DNA from: a phage
Reading direction: 5' to 3' (one strand)
Length of the DNA stretch: 64,000 nucleotides
Assembly (NCBI GenBank): GCA_024673055.1
Contig: GCA_024673055.1_4537.1
Position numbers and translations under genes: made by a program. The notes below the pieces were generated by a model that saw only the letters and a program-made list of their open reading frames with translations, was not told where the DNA came from and ran no database searches. Numbering within the stretch: the first letter of the stretch is position 1; the number at the start of each line of letters is the position of its first letter. Of the stretch, positions 10,706 to 19,973 are shown piece by piece.

Positions 10706-11260
10706 ATGTGGGGTGAAGGAACACCCTGGAAAACACAAGCTGAATTTTATACTTATCTTAGGGGATGTTTTAGAAAAGCATGGATGAGACACCCTAATAA
10801 AATTAAGGTTATCAATGCAAGGCGTTTTAAAGTTGATCGAGTAGATAAAGACGGCAATGTGATGATAGACAAGAAAACTGGAAAACCAAAACAAGTTTGG
10901 AATTGTGAGTGCGAAATATGTGGACATAGAGGAGGAATGAAAGACTTCCAAGTGGATCATATTCACGCAGCAAAACAACTTCAATGTTTTGATGATATTC
11001 CTCTTTTTGTTTTCCGTTTAATCTATGTGAAAGAAGAAGATTTGCGAATGGTTTGTAAATTGTGCAACTCTATTCTTGCTTATGCAGACAAGCAAGGCAT
11101 ATCTTTTGAAGAAGCAAAAGCTGAAAAAGAAGCGATAGCTTTGTGTAGAGCTAAGAAAGATAAAGCGTGGCTGAAGAAGCGTAAAATAGAACCTGAAAGC
11201 ACAGTAGCAAAACGCCGTAAACAAATAGTCAAAATCCTATTGCAGGAAATTGAAAGTTAG
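10706..11260 (+). CDS. HNH-family endonuclease
   Basis: CECEICGH...FQVDHIHAAKQ...CKLCNS His-Me finger/HNH-like Cys/His pattern. Confidence 0.5.
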   Translation: MWGEGTPWKTQAEFYTYLRGCFRKAWMRHPNKIKVINARRFKVDRVDKDGNVMIDKKTGKPKQVWNCECEICGHRGGMKDFQVDHIHAAKQLQCFDDIPLFVFRLIYVKEEDLRMVCKLCNSILAYADKQGISFEEAKAEKEAIALCRAKKDKAWLKKRKIEPESTVAKRRKQIVKILLQEIES

Positions 11261-12913: not shown

Positions 12914-12929
12914 TCTGTTTAAATAGTTA

Positions 12930-12957
12930 TTGACTTTAGTATTAGTTTTAGTATAAT
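12930..12957 (+). promoter_or_regulatory. sigma70-like promoter (TTGACT-16-TATAAT)
   Basis: -35 TTGACT 12930-12935; -10 TATAAT 12952-12957. Confidence 0.55.
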
Positions 12958-12970
12958 ATAGCACAATACT

Positions 12971-12990
12971 GGGAGGAGGTGAGTCCTCCC
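12971..12990 (+). promoter_or_regulatory. leader stem-loop after promoter
   Basis: GGGAGGA-ggtgag-TCCTCCC perfect 7-bp stem immediately downstream of promoter. Confidence 0.45.
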
Positions 12991-13011
12991 ATTCAAAATG
13001 AAGGAGAAAAT

Positions 13012-13422
13012 ATGTCATTAGTAAATACTACAACTTGGGCTACCGTAAGCATGTCTACTGTAATGTCTACCCCTATCTGGAAACTAGAATCAAATAAACA
13101 CAATGGTAATATCCCACACGAGAAACAAAATGCTGTTATTAGAGCGTCGCTTGTAATGCTGGGTATGGCTGAAGATTCACACTATTCTGTTGAGCGTAAT
13201 GTGAATATCCGAAGCAATAACGATAAGCGAGTAGTGTTTGCAAATACAACGCTTTTCACTTTCCCTGTTTCACCTAATTGTGGTTTTAAACGAATCTACC
13301 AAGAAAATGATATTTTTCATTTTGGTGATGAAGAATTTACAGGTTGGGGTGCGTCACATATTAAGATGGATGATTTCGGTAACTCTTATGATCCTGCGAA
13401 AGCAGATGATACTAATCAATGA
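13012..13422 (+). CDS. hypothetical protein
   Basis: ATG 13012 after AAGGAG; track ORF 12979..13422 trimmed to SD-supported start. Confidence 0.5.
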   Translation: MSLVNTTTWATVSMSTVMSTPIWKLESNKHNGNIPHEKQNAVIRASLVMLGMAEDSHYSVERNVNIRSNNDKRVVFANTTLFTFPVSPNCGFKRIYQENDIFHFGDEEFTGWGASHIKMDDFGNSYDPAKADDTNQ

Positions 13423-13430
13423 GAGGGACA

Positions 13431-13673
13431 ATGACTGATAATAAATATGAAGGCTGTGAAATCGAAGTCTATTTTGATGAAACTGTTGGTTGTAATGTAA
13501 CTGTAATTCTAGACACTTCAAAACGTTTATCTCCTAAAAGACAAGAAGCAGACCGTCGAGCAAAAGCAAAAGGGTTTGATGACATAACTCATTTTGAAGG
13601 TTTTCTATATGCTAATGGACTTTTTAATGAAATGAAGTTCGGTTATGATGTAGATGTTTTGAATATGCATTAA
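13431..13673 (+). CDS. hypothetical protein
   Basis: ATG 13431 after GAGAGGGACA. Confidence 0.45.
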   Translation: MTDNKYEGCEIEVYFDETVGCNVTVILDTSKRLSPKRQEADRRAKAKGFDDITHFEGFLYANGLFNEMKFGYDVDVLNMH

Positions 13674-13689
13674 TAATAGGGAGGAGAAG

Positions 13690-15933
13690 TTGATTCGTTT
13701 TGTAACTAAATCTAACGGTAAGACAGAGGAGTTTAATCCAGAAAAACTTCGCAAGTGGTCTGAATTTGCAGCAGGTAAACTAAACTGGTCTGAAATTGAA
13801 TTAGAAGCTGTGAAGCGGTGTTATGACGGTGTGTCTACACGTGATCTGCATAAAGCAATGATTGCAGCGTGTATTGACAAGAAAACACAAGCTTACAGTG
13901 ATATGGCAGGAAGACTTCTTCTGGGTATGATTTACAAACAGGCTCATGGGGGATACCACAGTATCCCTTCACTGAATACCTTTTATCATGATATGGTAGA
14001 ACGTGGACATTGGGCTAAAATGGATTATACTGATGAAGAGATCAAAGAAATCGGTAAGATTGTAAAGCATAATAAAAATCTAACTTATGGTTATTCTGTT
14101 TTACGTCAGATGGTAGATAAATATCTTATTCGAGATGCAGTAAACGATGTTGTGCATGAGTCCCCACAGTTTCTTTTCATTGGTATCGCAATGAAGGTTA
14201 TGGAGATCCAACCAAAAGAACGCCGTATAGAAGATATTAAAAAACTTTATACTTATGTTAGCGATCTTAAGATTAATCTGCCATCGCCGTATCTGACAAC
14301 TCTACGAACTCCAATCAAAGGAAGTGCGTCTTGTTGTTTATTCCGTGCAGACGATACGGCAGAGTCTTTAGCCATTGCTAACTACTTAGCTCATGAGTAT
14401 ACGTTGAATAACGCAGGTATTGGTGTTAATCTTCAAACTCGTGCCACAGGTCAAGGTGTTAAGAATAATCGTATTATTCATGGTGGTCTTCTTCCGTATC
14501 TGAAATGGATGGAAGATAGTGTTGGAGCTTCGAAGCAAGCAAGCCGTGGAGGTAGTGCTACAGTTACCTTTACCATACTTGAACCAGATTTCGACGATCT
14601 GATTCGACTGAAGAATCCAACAACACCTATAGATAAACGAGTAGACAAACTGGATTATTCTATTGTTGTTAACCGTTCATTCTTGCGTCGAGCAGCAAAA
14701 AACGAAGATTGGATGTTAGTTAGTTGTGATGATGCTCCTGAACTTTATGAAGCTTTGTATAAAAGTGAAGAAGAGTTTGATGCAGTTTATGGCAAAGTAA
14801 GCCGTCGTCGCATTAAGAAAAAATTTGTTAAGGCTCGTGATCTTCTGACAGAGATTATTGTTCAACGTGCAGAAACAGGACGTATTTACATGTTCTTTGC
14901 TGACAACGTTAACAACCATACACCTTTCCTGGATACGGTGTATCAATCAAACCTGTGTCAAGAGATTTTCTTACCGACTAAAGCTTTCCACAATATGCCG
15001 GATCTCTTTACTGGTGAGAATACTGAAGATCAAGAATTGGCTTTATGTTTCTTATCTTCTATTGTTGCTGGTCGTGTATTACCTGAAGAATATGAAGATG
15101 TTGCATACTACACTGTATTGACAATTGACAACGTTATTGAAACAATGGATTATCCATTTAAACATAACGAAATAACTGCTAAAGCACGTAGATCTATTGG
15201 TGTAGGCATTACAAACTTAGCGCATTACTTGGCAAGTAATTTTGTAAATTATTCAGATGCTTATGCTAAAAAATTAATGCATGAACTTGCAGAACGTCAT
15301 TACTTTTGGTTGGCAAAAGCCTCTCTGCGTCTGGCTAAGGAAAAAGGTAATGCGGAGTGGATCGATAAGACCAAATGGCCTCAAGGTTGGCTACCAATTG
15401 ACACTTATGCTAAAACAGTAGATAGTATCGGTAATTTTGATCTTAAAATGGACTGGGAAGGCTTACGTGCTGAAATCATTGAACAAGGTGGTATCCGTAA
15501 CAGTGTCTTGGCTGCTATTGCACCCAATGAGTCCAGCAGTTTGGTAAGCAATACTACTAACTCTCTGTATCCTGTTCGTGATACCATTATGTATAAACAA
15601 AGTCAGAAAGGCAGTGTATTATTTATTGTTCCAGACTATGAAAAACTGAAAATGTTCTACCAATCTGCCTGGGATACTCCGGCTAAAGATCTTGCAGAAA
15701 TGTATGGTATCTTTACCAAGTTTACGGACCAAGGAATTTCTTGTGATTCTTGGTTAGATTATTCTAAATTGGTAGGGGGACGTTTATCAGTTAAAGAAGA
15801 GATGAAATTTATTTTGAACTTTGCTAGACTGGGTGGTAAGTCATTGTATTACCTTAATAGTAGAACAAAATCAGCAGACTCTTTAGCACAAGAAGATTCT
15901 GAAGACGAAGGATGTAGTGCCTGTAAAATGTAG
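13690..15933 (+). CDS. nrdA: ribonucleoside-diphosphate reductase large subunit (class Ia)
   Basis: 747 aa; N-terminal ATP-cone-like region; C-terminal CSAC tail; TTG start after GGGAGGAG. Confidence 0.9.
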   Translation: MIRFVTKSNGKTEEFNPEKLRKWSEFAAGKLNWSEIELEAVKRCYDGVSTRDLHKAMIAACIDKKTQAYSDMAGRLLLGMIYKQAHGGYHSIPSLNTFYHDMVERGHWAKMDYTDEEIKEIGKIVKHNKNLTYGYSVLRQMVDKYLIRDAVNDVVHESPQFLFIGIAMKVMEIQPKERRIEDIKKLYTYVSDLKINLPSPYLTTLRTPIKGSASCCLFRADDTAESLAIANYLAHEYTLNNAGIGVNLQTRATGQGVKNNRIIHGGLLPYLKWMEDSVGASKQASRGGSATVTFTILEPDFDDLIRLKNPTTPIDKRVDKLDYSIVVNRSFLRRAAKNEDWMLVSCDDAPELYEALYKSEEEFDAVYGKVSRRRIKKKFVKARDLLTEIIVQRAETGRIYMFFADNVNNHTPFLDTVYQSNLCQEIFLPTKAFHNMPDLFTGENTEDQELALCFLSSIVAGRVLPEEYEDVAYYTVLTIDNVIETMDYPFKHNEITAKARRSIGVGITNLAHYLASNFVNYSDAYAKKLMHELAERHYFWLAKASLRLAKEKGNAEWIDKTKWPQGWLPIDTYAKTVDSIGNFDLKMDWEGLRAEIIEQGGIRNSVLAAIAPNESSSLVSNTTNSLYPVRDTIMYKQSQKGSVLFIVPDYEKLKMFYQSAWDTPAKDLAEMYGIFTKFTDQGISCDSWLDYSKLVGGRLSVKEEMKFILNFARLGGKSLYYLNSRTKSADSLAQEDSEDEGCSACKM

Positions 15934-15944
15934 TAGGAGAACAG

Positions 15945-16601
15945 ATGAAGAAGGGTAAACGTAAAGTTACCGTTCTCACAGAGAGGGGAGAAATCCCCTT
16001 GATTGTGGATGTTGAACGTAGATTGTGGGAAGGTGGTGTTATCAATGGGAAAAGGGTTAATACATTCATAGACCCTTCCTATGCAGCTTGGAAAGGCATG
16101 TTTAATCGTGCATATCGTATGGAAAACATTAGACCAGGTTATAAAGATGTTACTGTGTGTGATGCTTGGTTCACCTTTTCAAACTTTGATAACTGGTATC
16201 AAGAACACAATGTGGAAGGCTTTGTTTTAGATAAAGATCTTGTTCTTGAAGGAAATACTGTTTATTGTCCTGAATATTGTAGGTTTGTTCCTCCTTATAT
16301 AAATACACTCTTAAATTATGCTAAGAGGTATGAAAGAAAATACTTACTAGGAGCACATGTTAGGAAAGATGGTAAGATTTATGCCAAAGCTTCTGGGAGT
16401 AAAGGAAAGCATTTAGGCTACTTCGCTACAGAGGAAGAGGCACACTTCGCTTGGCTAAAAGATAAAGCTAAGTCAATCAGGGAAACAGCGGATCGTTACA
16501 AAGAGGAAGAACATTTTTATCCAGAGGTGTACAACACTCTTGTAAACAAGGCGGATTTCTATTGGCACCTGGCGGAAACAAAAACAGTATTTCGAGGCTA
16601 A
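15945..16601 (+). CDS. HNH/AP2-type homing endonuclease inserted between nrdA and nrdB
   Basis: Position identical to T4 mobE; AP2-like GYFATEEEAHFAW segment; LDKDL...GN...PEYCRFV HNH-like core. Confidence 0.5.
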   Translation: MKKGKRKVTVLTERGEIPLIVDVERRLWEGGVINGKRVNTFIDPSYAAWKGMFNRAYRMENIRPGYKDVTVCDAWFTFSNFDNWYQEHNVEGFVLDKDLVLEGNTVYCPEYCRFVPPYINTLLNYAKRYERKYLLGAHVRKDGKIYAKASGSKGKHLGYFATEEEAHFAWLKDKAKSIRETADRYKEEEHFYPEVYNTLVNKADFYWHLAETKTVFRG

Positions 16602-16605
16602 ATAT

Positions 16606-16629
16606 AAAGGGGCTTCGGCCCCCTTTTAT
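16606..16629 (+). terminator. intrinsic terminator (UUCG tetraloop)
   Basis: GGGGC-TTCG-GCCCC followed by TTTTATT. Confidence 0.65.
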
Positions 16630-16644
16630 TGAGGAGAATTTTAA

Positions 16645-17730
16645 ATGGCAGCAATTAATTTACACAATGAAGTTTACAAAACAGGAAAATATCCAGTATT
16701 TTTGGGGGAGCAATTAGGGATCTTTGATTCTGTTAACGTAACTTATCCAGAAATGCACAAACTCTACAAACTTCAAAAAGCACAAGATTGGGATGAAAAC
16801 GAAGTTAATCTGGATCAGACACGTAAAGATTTCGTAGCTTGTTCTAAAAACAACTATGATGTTATGATTAAAAACTTATCGTTCCAATGGGAAAATGATT
16901 CTCTTGCAAAATCAATCATCACTTTGTTCTCTCCATTCTTGAGTAACAATGAAGCCTGTGCTATGATGATGAAGCAGAGTGAAATGGAAGTTCTCCATGC
17001 GTTAACGTATTCTGAAATAATCCGTCAATGTACTCCAGATCCAATTGAAGTCATCAATCAGATTATGATTAATGATAAAATTTTCAATCGTATGGGTATC
17101 ATTGCTGATATCATGGGTCAGTTGGAAGAAGCTGGTCATAAGTATGCTCTAGGATTGATTGAAGCTAACGATGAACTTCGATTACTGATTCTTAAAGGGA
17201 TGGTAGCCCTGATTGGATTAGAAGGTATTCAGTTTATATCTTCCTTCTCTGCTACTTTTGCTATGGCAGAACAACAACTGTTTGTTGGGGCTTGTAAACT
17301 GATCCAGAAAATTATGCTAGATGAAATCTTGCATGTTAAGATGGATTATGCTGTAATTGATGCATTGATGCATGACCCAATTTGGCGTAAAATTTACGAA
17401 GATAATATTGAAGAGTTGACTTTGATCCTCGACACTGTTGTTGAACAAGAGGAACAGTGGTGTGACTACCTGTTTAGTGAAGGTCGTTTTATTGTAGGTC
17501 TTAACGCCGAATTGTCTAAACAGTGGGTTTATTTCAATGCTGCTCCTATTTATCGTCGATTGAAAATGAAAGCCAAGTTTAAAGCACCTAAACATAGTCC
17601 TTTAGCTTGGATGGAAAAATGGTTGAATCCTGATTTGATTCAGTCAGCAGCCCAAGAGATTCAGTTAACTAATTACAAATTGAATTCAGCTAACAAAGAT
17701 CTCTCTGATGATGAGGAGCTTGACTTCTAA
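16645..17730 (+). CDS. nrdB: ribonucleoside-diphosphate reductase small subunit
   Basis: 361 aa; acidic C-terminal tail (LSDDEELDF); immediately downstream of nrdA/homing endonuclease. Confidence 0.85.
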   Translation: MAAINLHNEVYKTGKYPVFLGEQLGIFDSVNVTYPEMHKLYKLQKAQDWDENEVNLDQTRKDFVACSKNNYDVMIKNLSFQWENDSLAKSIITLFSPFLSNNEACAMMMKQSEMEVLHALTYSEIIRQCTPDPIEVINQIMINDKIFNRMGIIADIMGQLEEAGHKYALGLIEANDELRLLILKGMVALIGLEGIQFISSFSATFAMAEQQLFVGACKLIQKIMLDEILHVKMDYAVIDALMHDPIWRKIYEDNIEELTLILDTVVEQEEQWCDYLFSEGRFIVGLNAELSKQWVYFNAAPIYRRLKMKAKFKAPKHSPLAWMEKWLNPDLIQSAAQEIQLTNYKLNSANKDLSDDEELDF

Positions 17731-17939
17731 TGATTTTGAGATGTGTTGGTATAATCGACACATTCAAAGACGTTTTTGACAAAGAGGCTTCTTATGAAGC
17801 CTCCGAAATGAAGAATGGTTTTTGTGATGTATTCGGTAAACGCCTGAAGAAAAACGGCGATCCTTGGCTAGGAGTTATGTCTTGTGGTCATATTATTGTA
17901 AATGGTGTTGCCAAGTTTGAAATAATTAAGGAGGAATAA
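17730..17939 (+). CDS. hypothetical protein
   Basis: 69-aa ORF coupled to nrdB stop. Confidence 0.4.
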   Translation: MILRCVGIIDTFKDVFDKEASYEASEMKNGFCDVFGKRLKKNGDPWLGVMSCGHIIVNGVAKFEIIKEE

Positions 17940-18091
17940 TGGCTGAAAAACTTATTTTTTGTCCTGTGTGTGGTGGGACTGGACAGATGGAAGTGGAAAT
18001 TATGGTAACATTTCCTTGCCTGAATTGTCATGGTGAAGGACGAGTAGTAGTCTTTGAAAAAGAAGGGTTGGAGGTAGAAGATGGAGAGTGA
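17939..18091 (+). CDS. small zinc-ribbon protein (50 aa)
   Basis: AAGGAGGA SD; CPVCGG...CLNCHG; below track cutoff. Confidence 0.35.
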   Translation: MAEKLIFCPVCGGTGQMEVEIMVTFPCLNCHGEGRVVVFEKEGLEVEDGE

Positions 18092-18245
18092 AAAAGAGTA
18101 TGTCCGAATTCCACGAGAATTAACAGATCACATTGCAGAAGCAATAGCTTTCGAAGCTAGATGTTGTGGAGGCATTGCTTACGATATTTATGAAGCAATT
18201 ATTAAAGCTGCTCAAGAAGAGGAGGAGATGAAAAATGGGTATTGA
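18081..18245 (+). CDS. small hypothetical protein (54 aa)
   Basis: GGAGG SD then ATG 18081; fills otherwise empty coding gap. Confidence 0.3.
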   Translation: MESEKEYVRIPRELTDHIAEAIAFEARCCGGIAYDIYEAIIKAAQEEEEMKNGY

Positions 18246-18561
18246 TATCGAATGGCGTATGTTACAGGGTGCACCTTTTAATAAGTGGGAAGAGGTTGTA
18301 GGAGAAGATCCTAGAATTGAAGAAGAATTTGATGGAGATTTTAACTGGTTCTTACAAGAAGGTCTTGACTTAAGTCGCATCTCTCCTTTCTACGATGCTG
18401 ATGAGTCTTATTGCATATATGGTATTTATTTAGAAGGCGGAGAAGGAAGCGTAGCTGTAGATCTTGAGCAAGTAAATGAGAATGCAAAAGAAGCCTATGC
18501 AGAGCTACTTGAAAAATATAACATTAAAACGGAAACTATTATTTCTCAACATGTCTGGTAA
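18235..18561 (+). CDS. hypothetical acidic protein
   Basis: 108-aa ORF, GAGGAGGAG SD. Confidence 0.5.
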   Translation: MGIDIEWRMLQGAPFNKWEEVVGEDPRIEEEFDGDFNWFLQEGLDLSRISPFYDADESYCIYGIYLEGGEGSVAVDLEQVNENAKEAYAELLEKYNIKTETIISQHVW

Positions 18562-18570
18562 GGAGAGAAA

Positions 18571-19137
18571 ATGAAAGTAGAAAAAACAAAAATTGAAGGT
18601 GCGGTAATTATCAAACCAGACGTTTATAAAGATGATCGTGGTTTCTTTTTAGAAACATACAATGAACAAAAATACGAAGATATCATTGGTAAACAAACTT
18701 TCGTTCAAGATAATATGTCTAAATCAAACTTCGGTGTTTTGCGAGGAATGCACTTTCAAACAAATAACCCGCAAGGTAAGCTTGTTCGTTGTGTAAGTGG
18801 AGAAGTATTGGATTTCGCTGTAGATTTACGTAAAGATAGTCCAACTTACGGTGCTTGGGACGGTGTTGTTCTTCGTGCACGACACCATACGCAGTTTTGG
18901 CTTCCCCCTGGTTTGGCACATGGTTTTATAGTTTTGAGTATGGACGCTATCTTTGAATACAAATGCACAACTCCATACGACCCTTCTAGCGAACAAAGTT
19001 TACGTTGGGATGATCCTGACATAGGGATCGATTGGGGCTTCGATATGATTTTTGACGAAGGTTTTAAACCTATCTTATCAACAAAAGATGCAATGGCTAA
19101 ATCTTTTCAACAGTTGCGTAGTGAGGGTGTATGCTAA
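18571..19137 (+). CDS. rmlC: dTDP-4-dehydrorhamnose 3,5-epimerase
   Basis: Cupin-fold RmlC signature DDRGFFLET and GMHFQ; 188 aa. Confidence 0.8.
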   Translation: MKVEKTKIEGAVIIKPDVYKDDRGFFLETYNEQKYEDIIGKQTFVQDNMSKSNFGVLRGMHFQTNNPQGKLVRCVSGEVLDFAVDLRKDSPTYGAWDGVVLRARHHTQFWLPPGLAHGFIVLSMDAIFEYKCTTPYDPSSEQSLRWDDPDIGIDWGFDMIFDEGFKPILSTKDAMAKSFQQLRSEGVC

Positions 19138-19973
19138 CATATCTGGTATTGGGTGGTAATGGACAACTGGGACAAGCTTTACGTAAAGTGGTTCCTTCTA
19201 ATGTATCTTTAATTTATCCTAAAGAACGTGTAGATATTACAAATTTTGAAGCTGTGCGAAACGCTATTGTTGAAGATTATGTAGACGGTGTTATTAACTG
19301 CGCTGCTTATACGGCTGTAGATAAAGCAGAACATGATTTTGCTACTGCTTTGGCTGTTAATGCGTATGGACCTGCAAATATTGCGGCAGTGTGCAGCAAA
19401 CTTAAAATTGATTTTGTGCATATTTCTACAGACTATATTTTTAATTACTCTCACCCTATTTTTGAAGATACTACACCTAACCCAATAAACAATTATGGGT
19501 ATACGAAAGAACTTGGTGAAAAAATGGTGCGAGGAGTTAACCCAAATGCATATATTATTCGAACAGCCTCGGTATATAGCGAATTTGGAAATAACTTTCT
19601 AAAAACGATGTTGTCTCGCTATAATGATGGACAACGTGATTTTATTATTGTTGCTGATCAGTTCTCTTGTCCAACATATGCTCCAGATTTAGCAGAAGCT
19701 ATTTTTGAAGTATTAAAGACAGGTTGGTCAAGGTCTGTTAAGACTTACCATTTTGCAGGAAGCCATTTTATTTCTTGGGCGGAGTTTGCGGAAAAGATCT
19801 TGACACAGATGCCAGAACCTGTTAAGATATCGGCGGTATCAGCTTCAACCTATAATGCTCCAGCAGCACGTCCGGTGAAGTCACAACTAGTAACCAGTCA
19901 CTACCTTACAAAATCAGATTTAAATAAAGGTATTGAACAGTCTTTAGCAGTATTACTTAATAAGGAGAGGTAA
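19131..19973 (+). CDS. rmlD: dTDP-4-dehydrorhamnose reductase
   Basis: N-terminal GGNGQLG Rossmann motif; YTAVDKAE and STDYIF motifs characteristic of RmlD. Confidence 0.75.
   Translation: MLTYLVLGGNGQLGQALRKVVPSNVSLIYPKERVDITNFEAVRNAIVEDYVDGVINCAAYTAVDKAEHDFATALAVNAYGPANIAAVCSKLKIDFVHISTDYIFNYSHPIFEDTTPNPINNYGYTKELGEKMVRGVNPNAYIIRTASVYSEFGNNFLKTMLSRYNDGQRDFIIVADQFSCPTYAPDLAEAIFEVLKTGWSRSVKTYHFAGSHFISWAEFAEKILTQMPEPVKISAVSASTYNAPAARPVKSQLVTSHYLTKSDLNKGIEQSLAVLLNKER

Follow-up and report, generated by a model that had tools for sequence, protein, structure and literature searches.

Free-standing homing endonuclease genes beside ribonucleotide reductase (RNR) genes are already well known in phages. 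In phage T4, the mobE gene lies between nrdA and nrdB; it is promoterless and co-transcribed with nrdA, it is mobile in crosses, and MobE nicks within nrdB of phage T2 (Wilson & Edgell 2009, PMC2790892). A second precedent is the IPA-HNH family, whose founding members are gp59, gp115-116 and gp209 of phage ICP1 and which is defined by a divergent HNH-like module that is invisible to Pfam (HNH_3 profile) together with a C-terminal AP2 domain (Barth, Dunham & Seed 2023, PMC10448857). IPA-HNH genes are enriched beside genes for DNA polymerase (29%), RNR (18%) and terminase (14%); their function was assigned from domain architecture, and the text consulted describes no nuclease assay (PMC10448857). 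A third enzyme of interest is PacI (PDB 3m7k/3ldy; His-Me finger group 20), which according to reviews is an HNH/His-Me enzyme without the catalytic His, in which a Tyr of the inter-strand loop substitutes and the metal is bound by one Asp and one Asn. Here we analyse 64,000 nucleotides of phage DNA (the window; GenBank assembly GCA_024673055.1, contig GCA_024673055.1_4537.1) in which an open reading frame (ORF) of 218 amino acids, already labelled 'HNH endonuclease' in databases, separates nrdA from nrdB. The initial annotation of this DNA had described the ORF as a candidate mobile element with HNH/AP2-like features that recapitulates the T4 nrdA-mobE-nrdB arrangement. On the evidence given below, we think it probable that the ORF belongs to the IPA-HNH family as an intact, free-standing homing endonuclease gene that is, or recently was, active and that would home into the naive nrdA-nrdB junction.

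Organization of the nrdA-nrdB locus

The window derives from a phAPEC8-like coliphage of the genus Phapecoctavirus (subfamily Stephanstirmvirinae), and several such genomes match its 4-kb nrd region at 98-99% identity. In the ORF listing, nrdA, the 218-aa ORF and nrdB follow one another head to tail on the + strand. The assignments of nrdA and nrdB are unambiguous, and the free-standing ORF between them lies where the initial annotation had placed it. The locus comprises the following features.

13690..15933, + strand: nrdA, class Ia ribonucleotide reductase large subunit, TTG start, 747 aa (Pfam PF02867, Ribonuc_red_lgC, 5.8e-97; PF00317; weak ATP-cone match; phrog_84, 4.6e-269)
15901..15933, + strand: recoded 3′ tail of nrdA, ending in ...EDSEDEGCSACKM before the stop codon; proposed immunity polymorphism at the proposed target site (comparison with ECO340P1; tails of 10 genomes)
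15934..16607, + strand: insert of 674 bp relative to the naive allele, consisting of the ribosome-binding site (RBS) AGGAG, the ORF and a 6-nt spacer, in place of the naive 8 nt TGAAACTA (alignments, mismatch map and sequence)
15945..16601, + strand: predicted free-standing homing endonuclease gene of the IPA-HNH family, 218 aa (phrog_953, 1.6e-56; BLASTP 3e-23 to ICP1 ORF59/gp59; omega 0.06-0.08; AF2 pLDDT 87)
16609..16630, + strand: intrinsic terminator GGGGC-TTCG-GCCCC with a T-rich tail, hairpin at 16609-16622 (sole terminator-like site in 13300-18100; invariant across aligned genomes)
16645..17730, + strand: nrdB, ribonucleotide reductase small subunit, 361 aa, with RBS GAGGAG at 16631-16636 (Pfam PF00268, Ribonuc_red_sm, 6.3e-33; phrog_86, 3.3e-103)

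The ORF starts after a gap of 11 nt from the nrdA stop codon and has its own RBS at 15935-15939. The terminator lies 3′ of the ORF in the window and directly after nrdA in naive alleles. Promoter-like matches were not in excess, at 17 versus 15.5 in shuffled sequence. Because the insertion falls between the nrdA stop codon and the terminator, nrdA transcripts probably run on into the ORF, whose own AGGAG would then direct its translation; by analogy, the short gap, the RBS and a terminator only after the ORF suggest that it is expressed in the manner of MobE. As no Rfam family matches anywhere in 13000-18500 (E <= 1), we consider the ORF free-standing and rejected an intron-encoded or structured-RNA context for it. 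Neither tblastn nor a profile search found a paralogue elsewhere in the window.

A second, unrelated insert is polymorphic in the same gap. This is an ORF of 111/112 aa (phrog_17458) that follows the terminator and overlaps the nrdB start by 14 nt (L002:2753-3091 in ZCKP1, L003:3257-3595 in REC, L007:1337-1672 in PHB05 and L012:1140-1475 in arall). Some Phapecoctavirus have it, as do those examined phi92-like phages that lack the endonuclease ORF; in the window, where its place would be between 16636 and 16645, it is absent. We rejected a relationship of the 112-aa ORF to T4 NrdB.1, to which it has no similarity.

An IPA-HNH gene in the position of mobE

PHROGs likewise name the 218-aa ORF an HNH endonuclease, through its match to phrog_953 and a further one to phrog_374 (1.1e-40). 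No Pfam or NCBIfam model, HNH models included, matches the ORF; none of 91 family members matches an HNH model, Pfam HNH_3 included, at E <= 0.1; and phmmer of the protein against PDB sequences returned chance-level matches only. Relatives are abundant, with 38,104 at E <= 1e-3 in a profile search of 1.84 billion representatives and with tblastn matches in 1,524 phage records, mostly from Vibrio phages (including ICP1), Pseudomonas phages and Rheinheimera 'Barba' phages. The match in ICP1 is ORF59 (gp59) of ICP1_2011_A, which adjoins the DNA polymerase gene and aligns to residues 48-201 of our query at 33% identity, including the segment LDKD..GN.VYCPEYCR.VP..IN. On the basis of this homology to a founding member, a Pfam-invisible HNH-related module and an AP2 domain (see below), we assign the ORF to the IPA-HNH family. 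Names of Stephanstirmvirinae phages are absent from the supplementary tables of Barth et al. (PMC10448857) in a name-only search, which is no proof of absence.

The same slot between nrdA and nrdB, directly after nrdA, and the apparent lack of a promoter in both genes, which would be read from nrdA, could also be explained if the ORF were a diverged MobE homologue kept at an ancestral nrdA-mobE-nrdB locus. We retrieved the T4 nrdA-mobE-nrdB.1-nrdB region for comparison and detected no similarity between the two proteins (BLASTP E 0.32; hhalign probability 0.3% with a MobE/ICP1-gp28 profile). They fall into different PHROGs, 655 for MobE and 953/374 for the ORF; Pfam HNH matches MobE but not the ORF; and their size and architecture differ, MobE having 141 aa and no AP2 domain. 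T4 has no IPA-HNH genes according to Barth et al. (PMC10448857), and the naive state in the subfamily of the window phage is an empty gap. Homology to MobE is rejected at the available sensitivity, and we give this explanation almost no credence. What recurs from T4 is the position of the gene but not its ancestry.

Mobility of the element

The initial annotation had proposed a search for presence/absence polymorphism among related phages, and the result is clearly positive. The naive junction, in which the nrdA stop codon is followed by 8 nt, the terminator and nrdB, was found in 44 records at >=80% coverage, and DNA of the 218-aa ORF in 22 records. Two genomes contain remnants: in ZCKP1 the ORF is reduced to its first ~35 and last ~130 nt, and in DE16 to only ~20 nt. 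Both of these alleles have a carrier-type nrdA tail. On either side of the gap, the empty-allele phage ECO340P1 matches the window at ~100% identity; all differences fall within 15901-15933 or in the insertion to 16607.

Discordant identity was found in PD114, a phi92-like phage of the genus Justusliebigvirus. Relative to the window, PD114 is 78.6% identical in nrdA and 77.6% in nrdB, whereas the cassette at 15886-16640 is 97.0% identical; synonymous divergence (dS) is 0.13 for the ORF versus 1.59 and 1.89 for the flanks. In a three-way informative-site analysis with PHB05 as the native-genus reference, PD114 was of its own-genus type at all informative sites to 15855, of window type at 15873-16653 and again of its own-genus type from 16663, with breakpoint intervals of 15856-15872 and 16654-16662.

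15873..16653, + strand: horizontally exchanged patch shared with PD114, including co-converted flanks, ~780 bp at ~97% identity (informative sites)

The patch also displaced the native 111-aa ORF of PD114. These data show that the endonuclease cassette was transferred between Phapecoctavirus and Justusliebigvirus.

The converse is seen in REC and ESCO5, where the ORF allele is only 81% identical to that of the window (dS 1.1), in a backbone that is ~98% identical. EF1-1 (L010:2356-2988, 210 aa) and MirsaeidiM_Esher1 (L011:2356-3015, 219 aa) have other alleles of the endonuclease ORF with a different RBS spacer, and the pairing of these alleles with a third kind of nrdA tail indicates that several independent lineages of the element occupy this site. 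Metagenomic phage contigs have homologues of 62% and 50% identity in the gap between nrdA and nrdB as well; a homologue of 35-40% identity is located elsewhere. The omega of the ORF equals that of nrdA and nrdB, showing that it is under strong purifying selection. Together, the polymorphism, the discordant identity and the mapped breakpoints make the ORF a strong candidate for a free-standing homing endonuclease gene, as the initial annotation had supposed.

It is conceivable that the cassette, nuclease or not, is passive and lacks any drive of its own, spreading solely by ordinary homologous recombination between the highly conserved flanks of the gap (15856-15900 and 16608-16662). In favour of passive exchange, sequence on either side of the insert is conserved even across genera, both breakpoints of PD114 lie within or next to these segments, and the unrelated 112-aa ORF is polymorphic in the same gap. 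Such exchange leaves unexplained the strong purifying selection on the ORF, its exact site retention in relatives down to 50% identity, and a differently recoded nrdA tail for each ORF lineage against one conserved naive tail in two genera. We therefore regard purely passive spread as unlikely and favour homing.

Recoding of the nrdA tail

Naive nrdA genes end in ...DGGCEACKM or ...EESGCEACKM before the stop codon, and the naive junction sequence contains ...GGTTGTGAAGCTTGCAAGATGTGATGAAACTAGGGGCTTCGGCCCC... The sequence GGTTGTGARGCTTGYAAGATGTRA-TGAAACTAGGGG, encoding the terminal ...GCEACKM, is common to the naive alleles of the two genera, despite surrounding genes that are ~78% identical. 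In every ORF-bearing or remnant allele examined, the nrdA tail differs from the naive one, and three distinct tails accompany different ORF lineages. The tail of the window is found also in PD114, REC, ZCKP1 and DE16, and a tail ending in ...EDNLKES[GS]CEGCSM is found in EF1-1 and MirsaeidiM_Esher1. The CxxC pair is retained in all tails compared.

The recoded junction is restricted to genomes with the ORF or a remnant of it, except for a tail-only match in three phi92-like, ORF-less phages, arall, cardinal and phiWec187. Direct inspection of arall (L012, ~1060-1110) revealed a near-identical recoded coding tail joined to the naive downstream sequence TGAAACTAGGGGG, with no endonuclease ORF. 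An allele of this type is either resistant and empty or the variant that received the first insertion of the element.

From these patterns, we propose that the recognition site of the endonuclease overlaps the nrdA tail, the stop codon and the terminator junction. Carriers would be immune through recoding of the final 33 nt of nrdA, which would change the DNA of the site and keep the essential C-terminal CxxC tail.

A putative nuclease core without the catalytic histidine

The protein contains two predicted modules downstream of its N-terminal region.

16074..16319, + strand: core (putative nuclease) module, residues 44-125 (invariant residues; predicted helices, then beta-loop-beta-alpha)
16335..16469, + strand: AP2/ERF-type DNA-binding domain, residues ~131-175 (family profile against PDB; Pfam AP2 in family members)

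The AP2-like feature noted in the initial annotation is real. A family profile matched plant structures in PDB (WRI1, 5.3e-6; AtERF1, 5e-3; ERF096, 7e-3), and Pfam AP2 matched 38 of the 91 family members, with a best value of 1.1e-6.

We examined conservation of the core across 163 sequences, comprising the query, first-round homologues and the 150 best representatives, in which family members range down to ~30% identity. Residues R55, Y66, F81, W84, D96-K97-D98, C112 and N120 are invariant in all 163 sequences, Y107 is kept in 162, and C72 is present in 83% of family members; the core consensus is L-D-K-D-x8-Y-s-P-x2-C-x-F-v-P-x3-N. AlphaFold (AF2) models are confident, with a pLDDT of 87.3 and a pTM of 0.77 for the whole protein and a pLDDT of 86.9 for core residues 40-130. 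In the predicted core, helices precede a strand, beta(94-96), which a loop connects to a second strand, beta(113-115), and the helix alpha(117-122) comes last. The position of the catalytic His, at the end of the first strand, is Lys97 in every sequence of the set, and the usual DH dipeptide reads DK. D96, D98 and N120 are candidate metal ligands, and their 24-residue spacing would fit a His-Me finger motif. A PD-(D/E)xK or GIY-YIG core, considered on account of the D-K-D and the Tyr/Arg motifs, was dropped in view of the predicted topology and of the best structural match, which is an HNH enzyme.

The conserved Lys/Asp/Asn/Tyr pattern supports the idea that the core works as a His-less HNH nuclease. 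The fold match of the modelled core is modest, however, and the core is a candidate member of the HNH/His-Me finger superfamily that lacks a strict H-N-H signature. The HNH feature of the initial annotation is atypical: the canonical catalytic residues are absent, an invariant Lys taking the place of the His, and Pfam and NCBIfam offer no HNH match.

The missing His and the lack of any matching HNH model could instead mean that the protein is a domesticated or neofunctionalised DNA-binding protein, in which AP2 and a dead HNH-like core form a site-specific repressor or an anti-defence or anti-competitor factor, the patchy distribution reflecting accessory-gene turnover. CasPRs provide a precedent for phage AP2-domain proteins that silence transcription by DNA binding alone, and Jablonska et al. 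read the absence of both the His and an equivalent Tyr from some His-Me groups as a loss of nuclease function. CasPRs, however, use CapR with AP2 and not the core of the 218-aa ORF. The invariance of D96-K97-D98, C112 and N120 and the near-invariance of Y107 across such divergent sequences look like an active-site pattern that includes the Asp/Asn/Tyr set of PacI. Moreover, the recoded nrdA tails, the decay remnants and the fixed insertion site are predicted by homing and are unneeded for a regulator. A non-cleaving regulator therefore appears improbable to us, and we retain the homing endonuclease interpretation.

Under this interpretation, in a mixed infection with an ORF-less relative, the AP2 domain, and probably also the N-terminal beta module, would recognise the naive nrdA-nrdB junction. 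The His-less beta-beta-alpha-metal-like core would nick or cut the junction DNA, with D96/D98 and N120 as likely metal ligands and, by analogy with PacI, either Y107 in the inter-strand loop or K97 as the probable general base. When the break is repaired on the template of the ORF-bearing genome, the ORF and short flanks would be copied into the recipient.

We put forward a broader proposal only tentatively, as it may well prove wrong: the IPA-HNH family, with its 38,104 representative clusters, could be a second lineage of His-less, PacI-like beta-beta-alpha-metal nucleases, with Y107 or K97 as general base or nucleophile. In this phage subfamily, the recognition site would then be the DNA encoding the NrdA CxxC tail together with the stop codon/terminator junction, and synonymous or conservative recoding of the tail would confer immunity. 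If this were true, the locus would offer a nearly complete homing cycle of naive, invaded, decayed (ZCKP1, DE16) and resistant-empty (arall-type) alleles.

A second HNH-type ORF behaves as a core gene

The initial annotation had named a second HNH-type ORF as another candidate mobile element.

10706..11260 (alternative TTG start 10685), + strand: HNH/endonuclease-VII-like ORF with the pattern CxxC...DH...CxxCN; core, syntenic and outside the mobile element (phrog_1985, 8.5e-66)

The ORF and its pattern are present as described, with Pfam matches to HNH (0.031) and Endonuclease_7 (0.036) that are both below cut-off. Its distribution does not support mobility. Of 70 related records, 68 contain the whole region at >=95% identity, and the homologue in Justusliebigvirus is single-copy, has the same neighbours and is ~76% identical in amino acids, which matches the divergence of the backbone. 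Single-copy homologues are also found in many Pseudomonas and Acinetobacter myophages (551 records). By the synteny criterion of the initial annotation itself, this ORF behaves as a vertically inherited core gene across the Stephanstirmvirinae, and the conserved single-copy pattern suggests a housekeeping nuclease, for example in packaging or resolution, rather than a homing function.

Other observations in the neighbourhood

Metagenomic relatives have a homing endonuclease hot spot just 3′ of thyX, where a 142-aa Pfam HNH_3 ORF (L015:578-1006) and a 139-aa LAGLIDADG ORF (L016:570-989) occupy the same place; its equivalent in the window is a 65-nt gap at 12914-12978. Just downstream of the nrd genes are dTDP-sugar pathway-like genes, of which 18571-19137 resembles dTDP-4-dehydrorhamnose 3,5-epimerase and 19131-19973 resembles an RmlD-type reductase. 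At positions equivalent to window 18571-19973, the related contigs L014 and L016 have Pfam matches to dTDP_sugar_isom, RmlD_sub_bind and NTP_transferase. Two records, 'Campylobacter phage B15' (MG065650.1) and 'Acinetobacter phage vB_AbaM_ABPW7' (OP562383.1), match this E. coli phage locus at ~99% identity, and their host labels may be unreliable.

Significance

Where phages co-infect a cell, free-standing homing endonucleases influence both the boundaries of recombination and the inheritance of markers, a matter relevant to phage evolution and to the design of phage cocktails. What is new here is the assignment of the ORF to the IPA-HNH family instead of to MobE, the mapped inter-genus patch with its allele series, the pattern of tail recoding, and the His-less, apparently PacI-like family core. 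The His-to-Lys signature and the candidate PacI-like fold are observations of the present analysis and are not discussed by Barth et al. (PMC10448857), in whose main text the words histidine and lysine are absent. The locus, a compact natural system, offers naive, invaded, decayed and possibly resistant alleles. Many occur in culturable phages of E. coli K-12, such as nieznany with the ORF and tuntematon and ukendt with naive alleles, on the same host strain according to their records. It is therefore suited to a first biochemical and genetic characterization of the large IPA-HNH family, including whether a His-less HNH core cuts DNA.

Comparison with described systems

Within the IPA-HNH family, the 218-aa ORF shares a free-standing gene, a Pfam-invisible divergent HNH-like module followed by AP2, and a place adjoining an essential DNA-metabolism gene. 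It differs in an extra N-terminal four-strand beta module, which is common to close relatives only.

Similar to PacI, the core appears to have a residue other than His (Lys) at the His position, an invariant Asp and Asn, and, in the corresponding loop, the near-invariant Tyr107. PacI differs in having no AP2 domain, in being a homodimeric restriction enzyme and in its two Cys4 zinc sites, whereas C112 is the only invariant cysteine in the family of the ORF. No sequence-level match between PacI and the ORF was found by phmmer or by the family profile against PDB.

The HNH_3-AP2 homing endonucleases (His-Me finger group 2, I-HmuI-like), reportedly described by Magnani and colleagues in 2004, likewise have a nuclease module directly N-terminal to AP2 and occur in phage homing endonuclease genes. 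Pfam HNH_3, however, matches neither the ORF nor any of the 91 members of its family, and the DH dipeptide is DK here.

Like T4 MobE, the ORF is a free-standing endonuclease gene directly 3′ of nrdA and 5′ of nrdB. MobE is a canonical HNH enzyme, and its target is inside nrdB, whereas the allele-specific polymorphism in the window phage group is in the nrdA tail; T4 also has nrdB.1 and an intron with I-TevIII, neither of which is in the window. The parallel with MobE is thus positional and probably functional, and not one of homology: unrelated endonuclease families have settled independently in the same nrdA-nrdB gap in T4-like and in phAPEC8/phi92-like phages.

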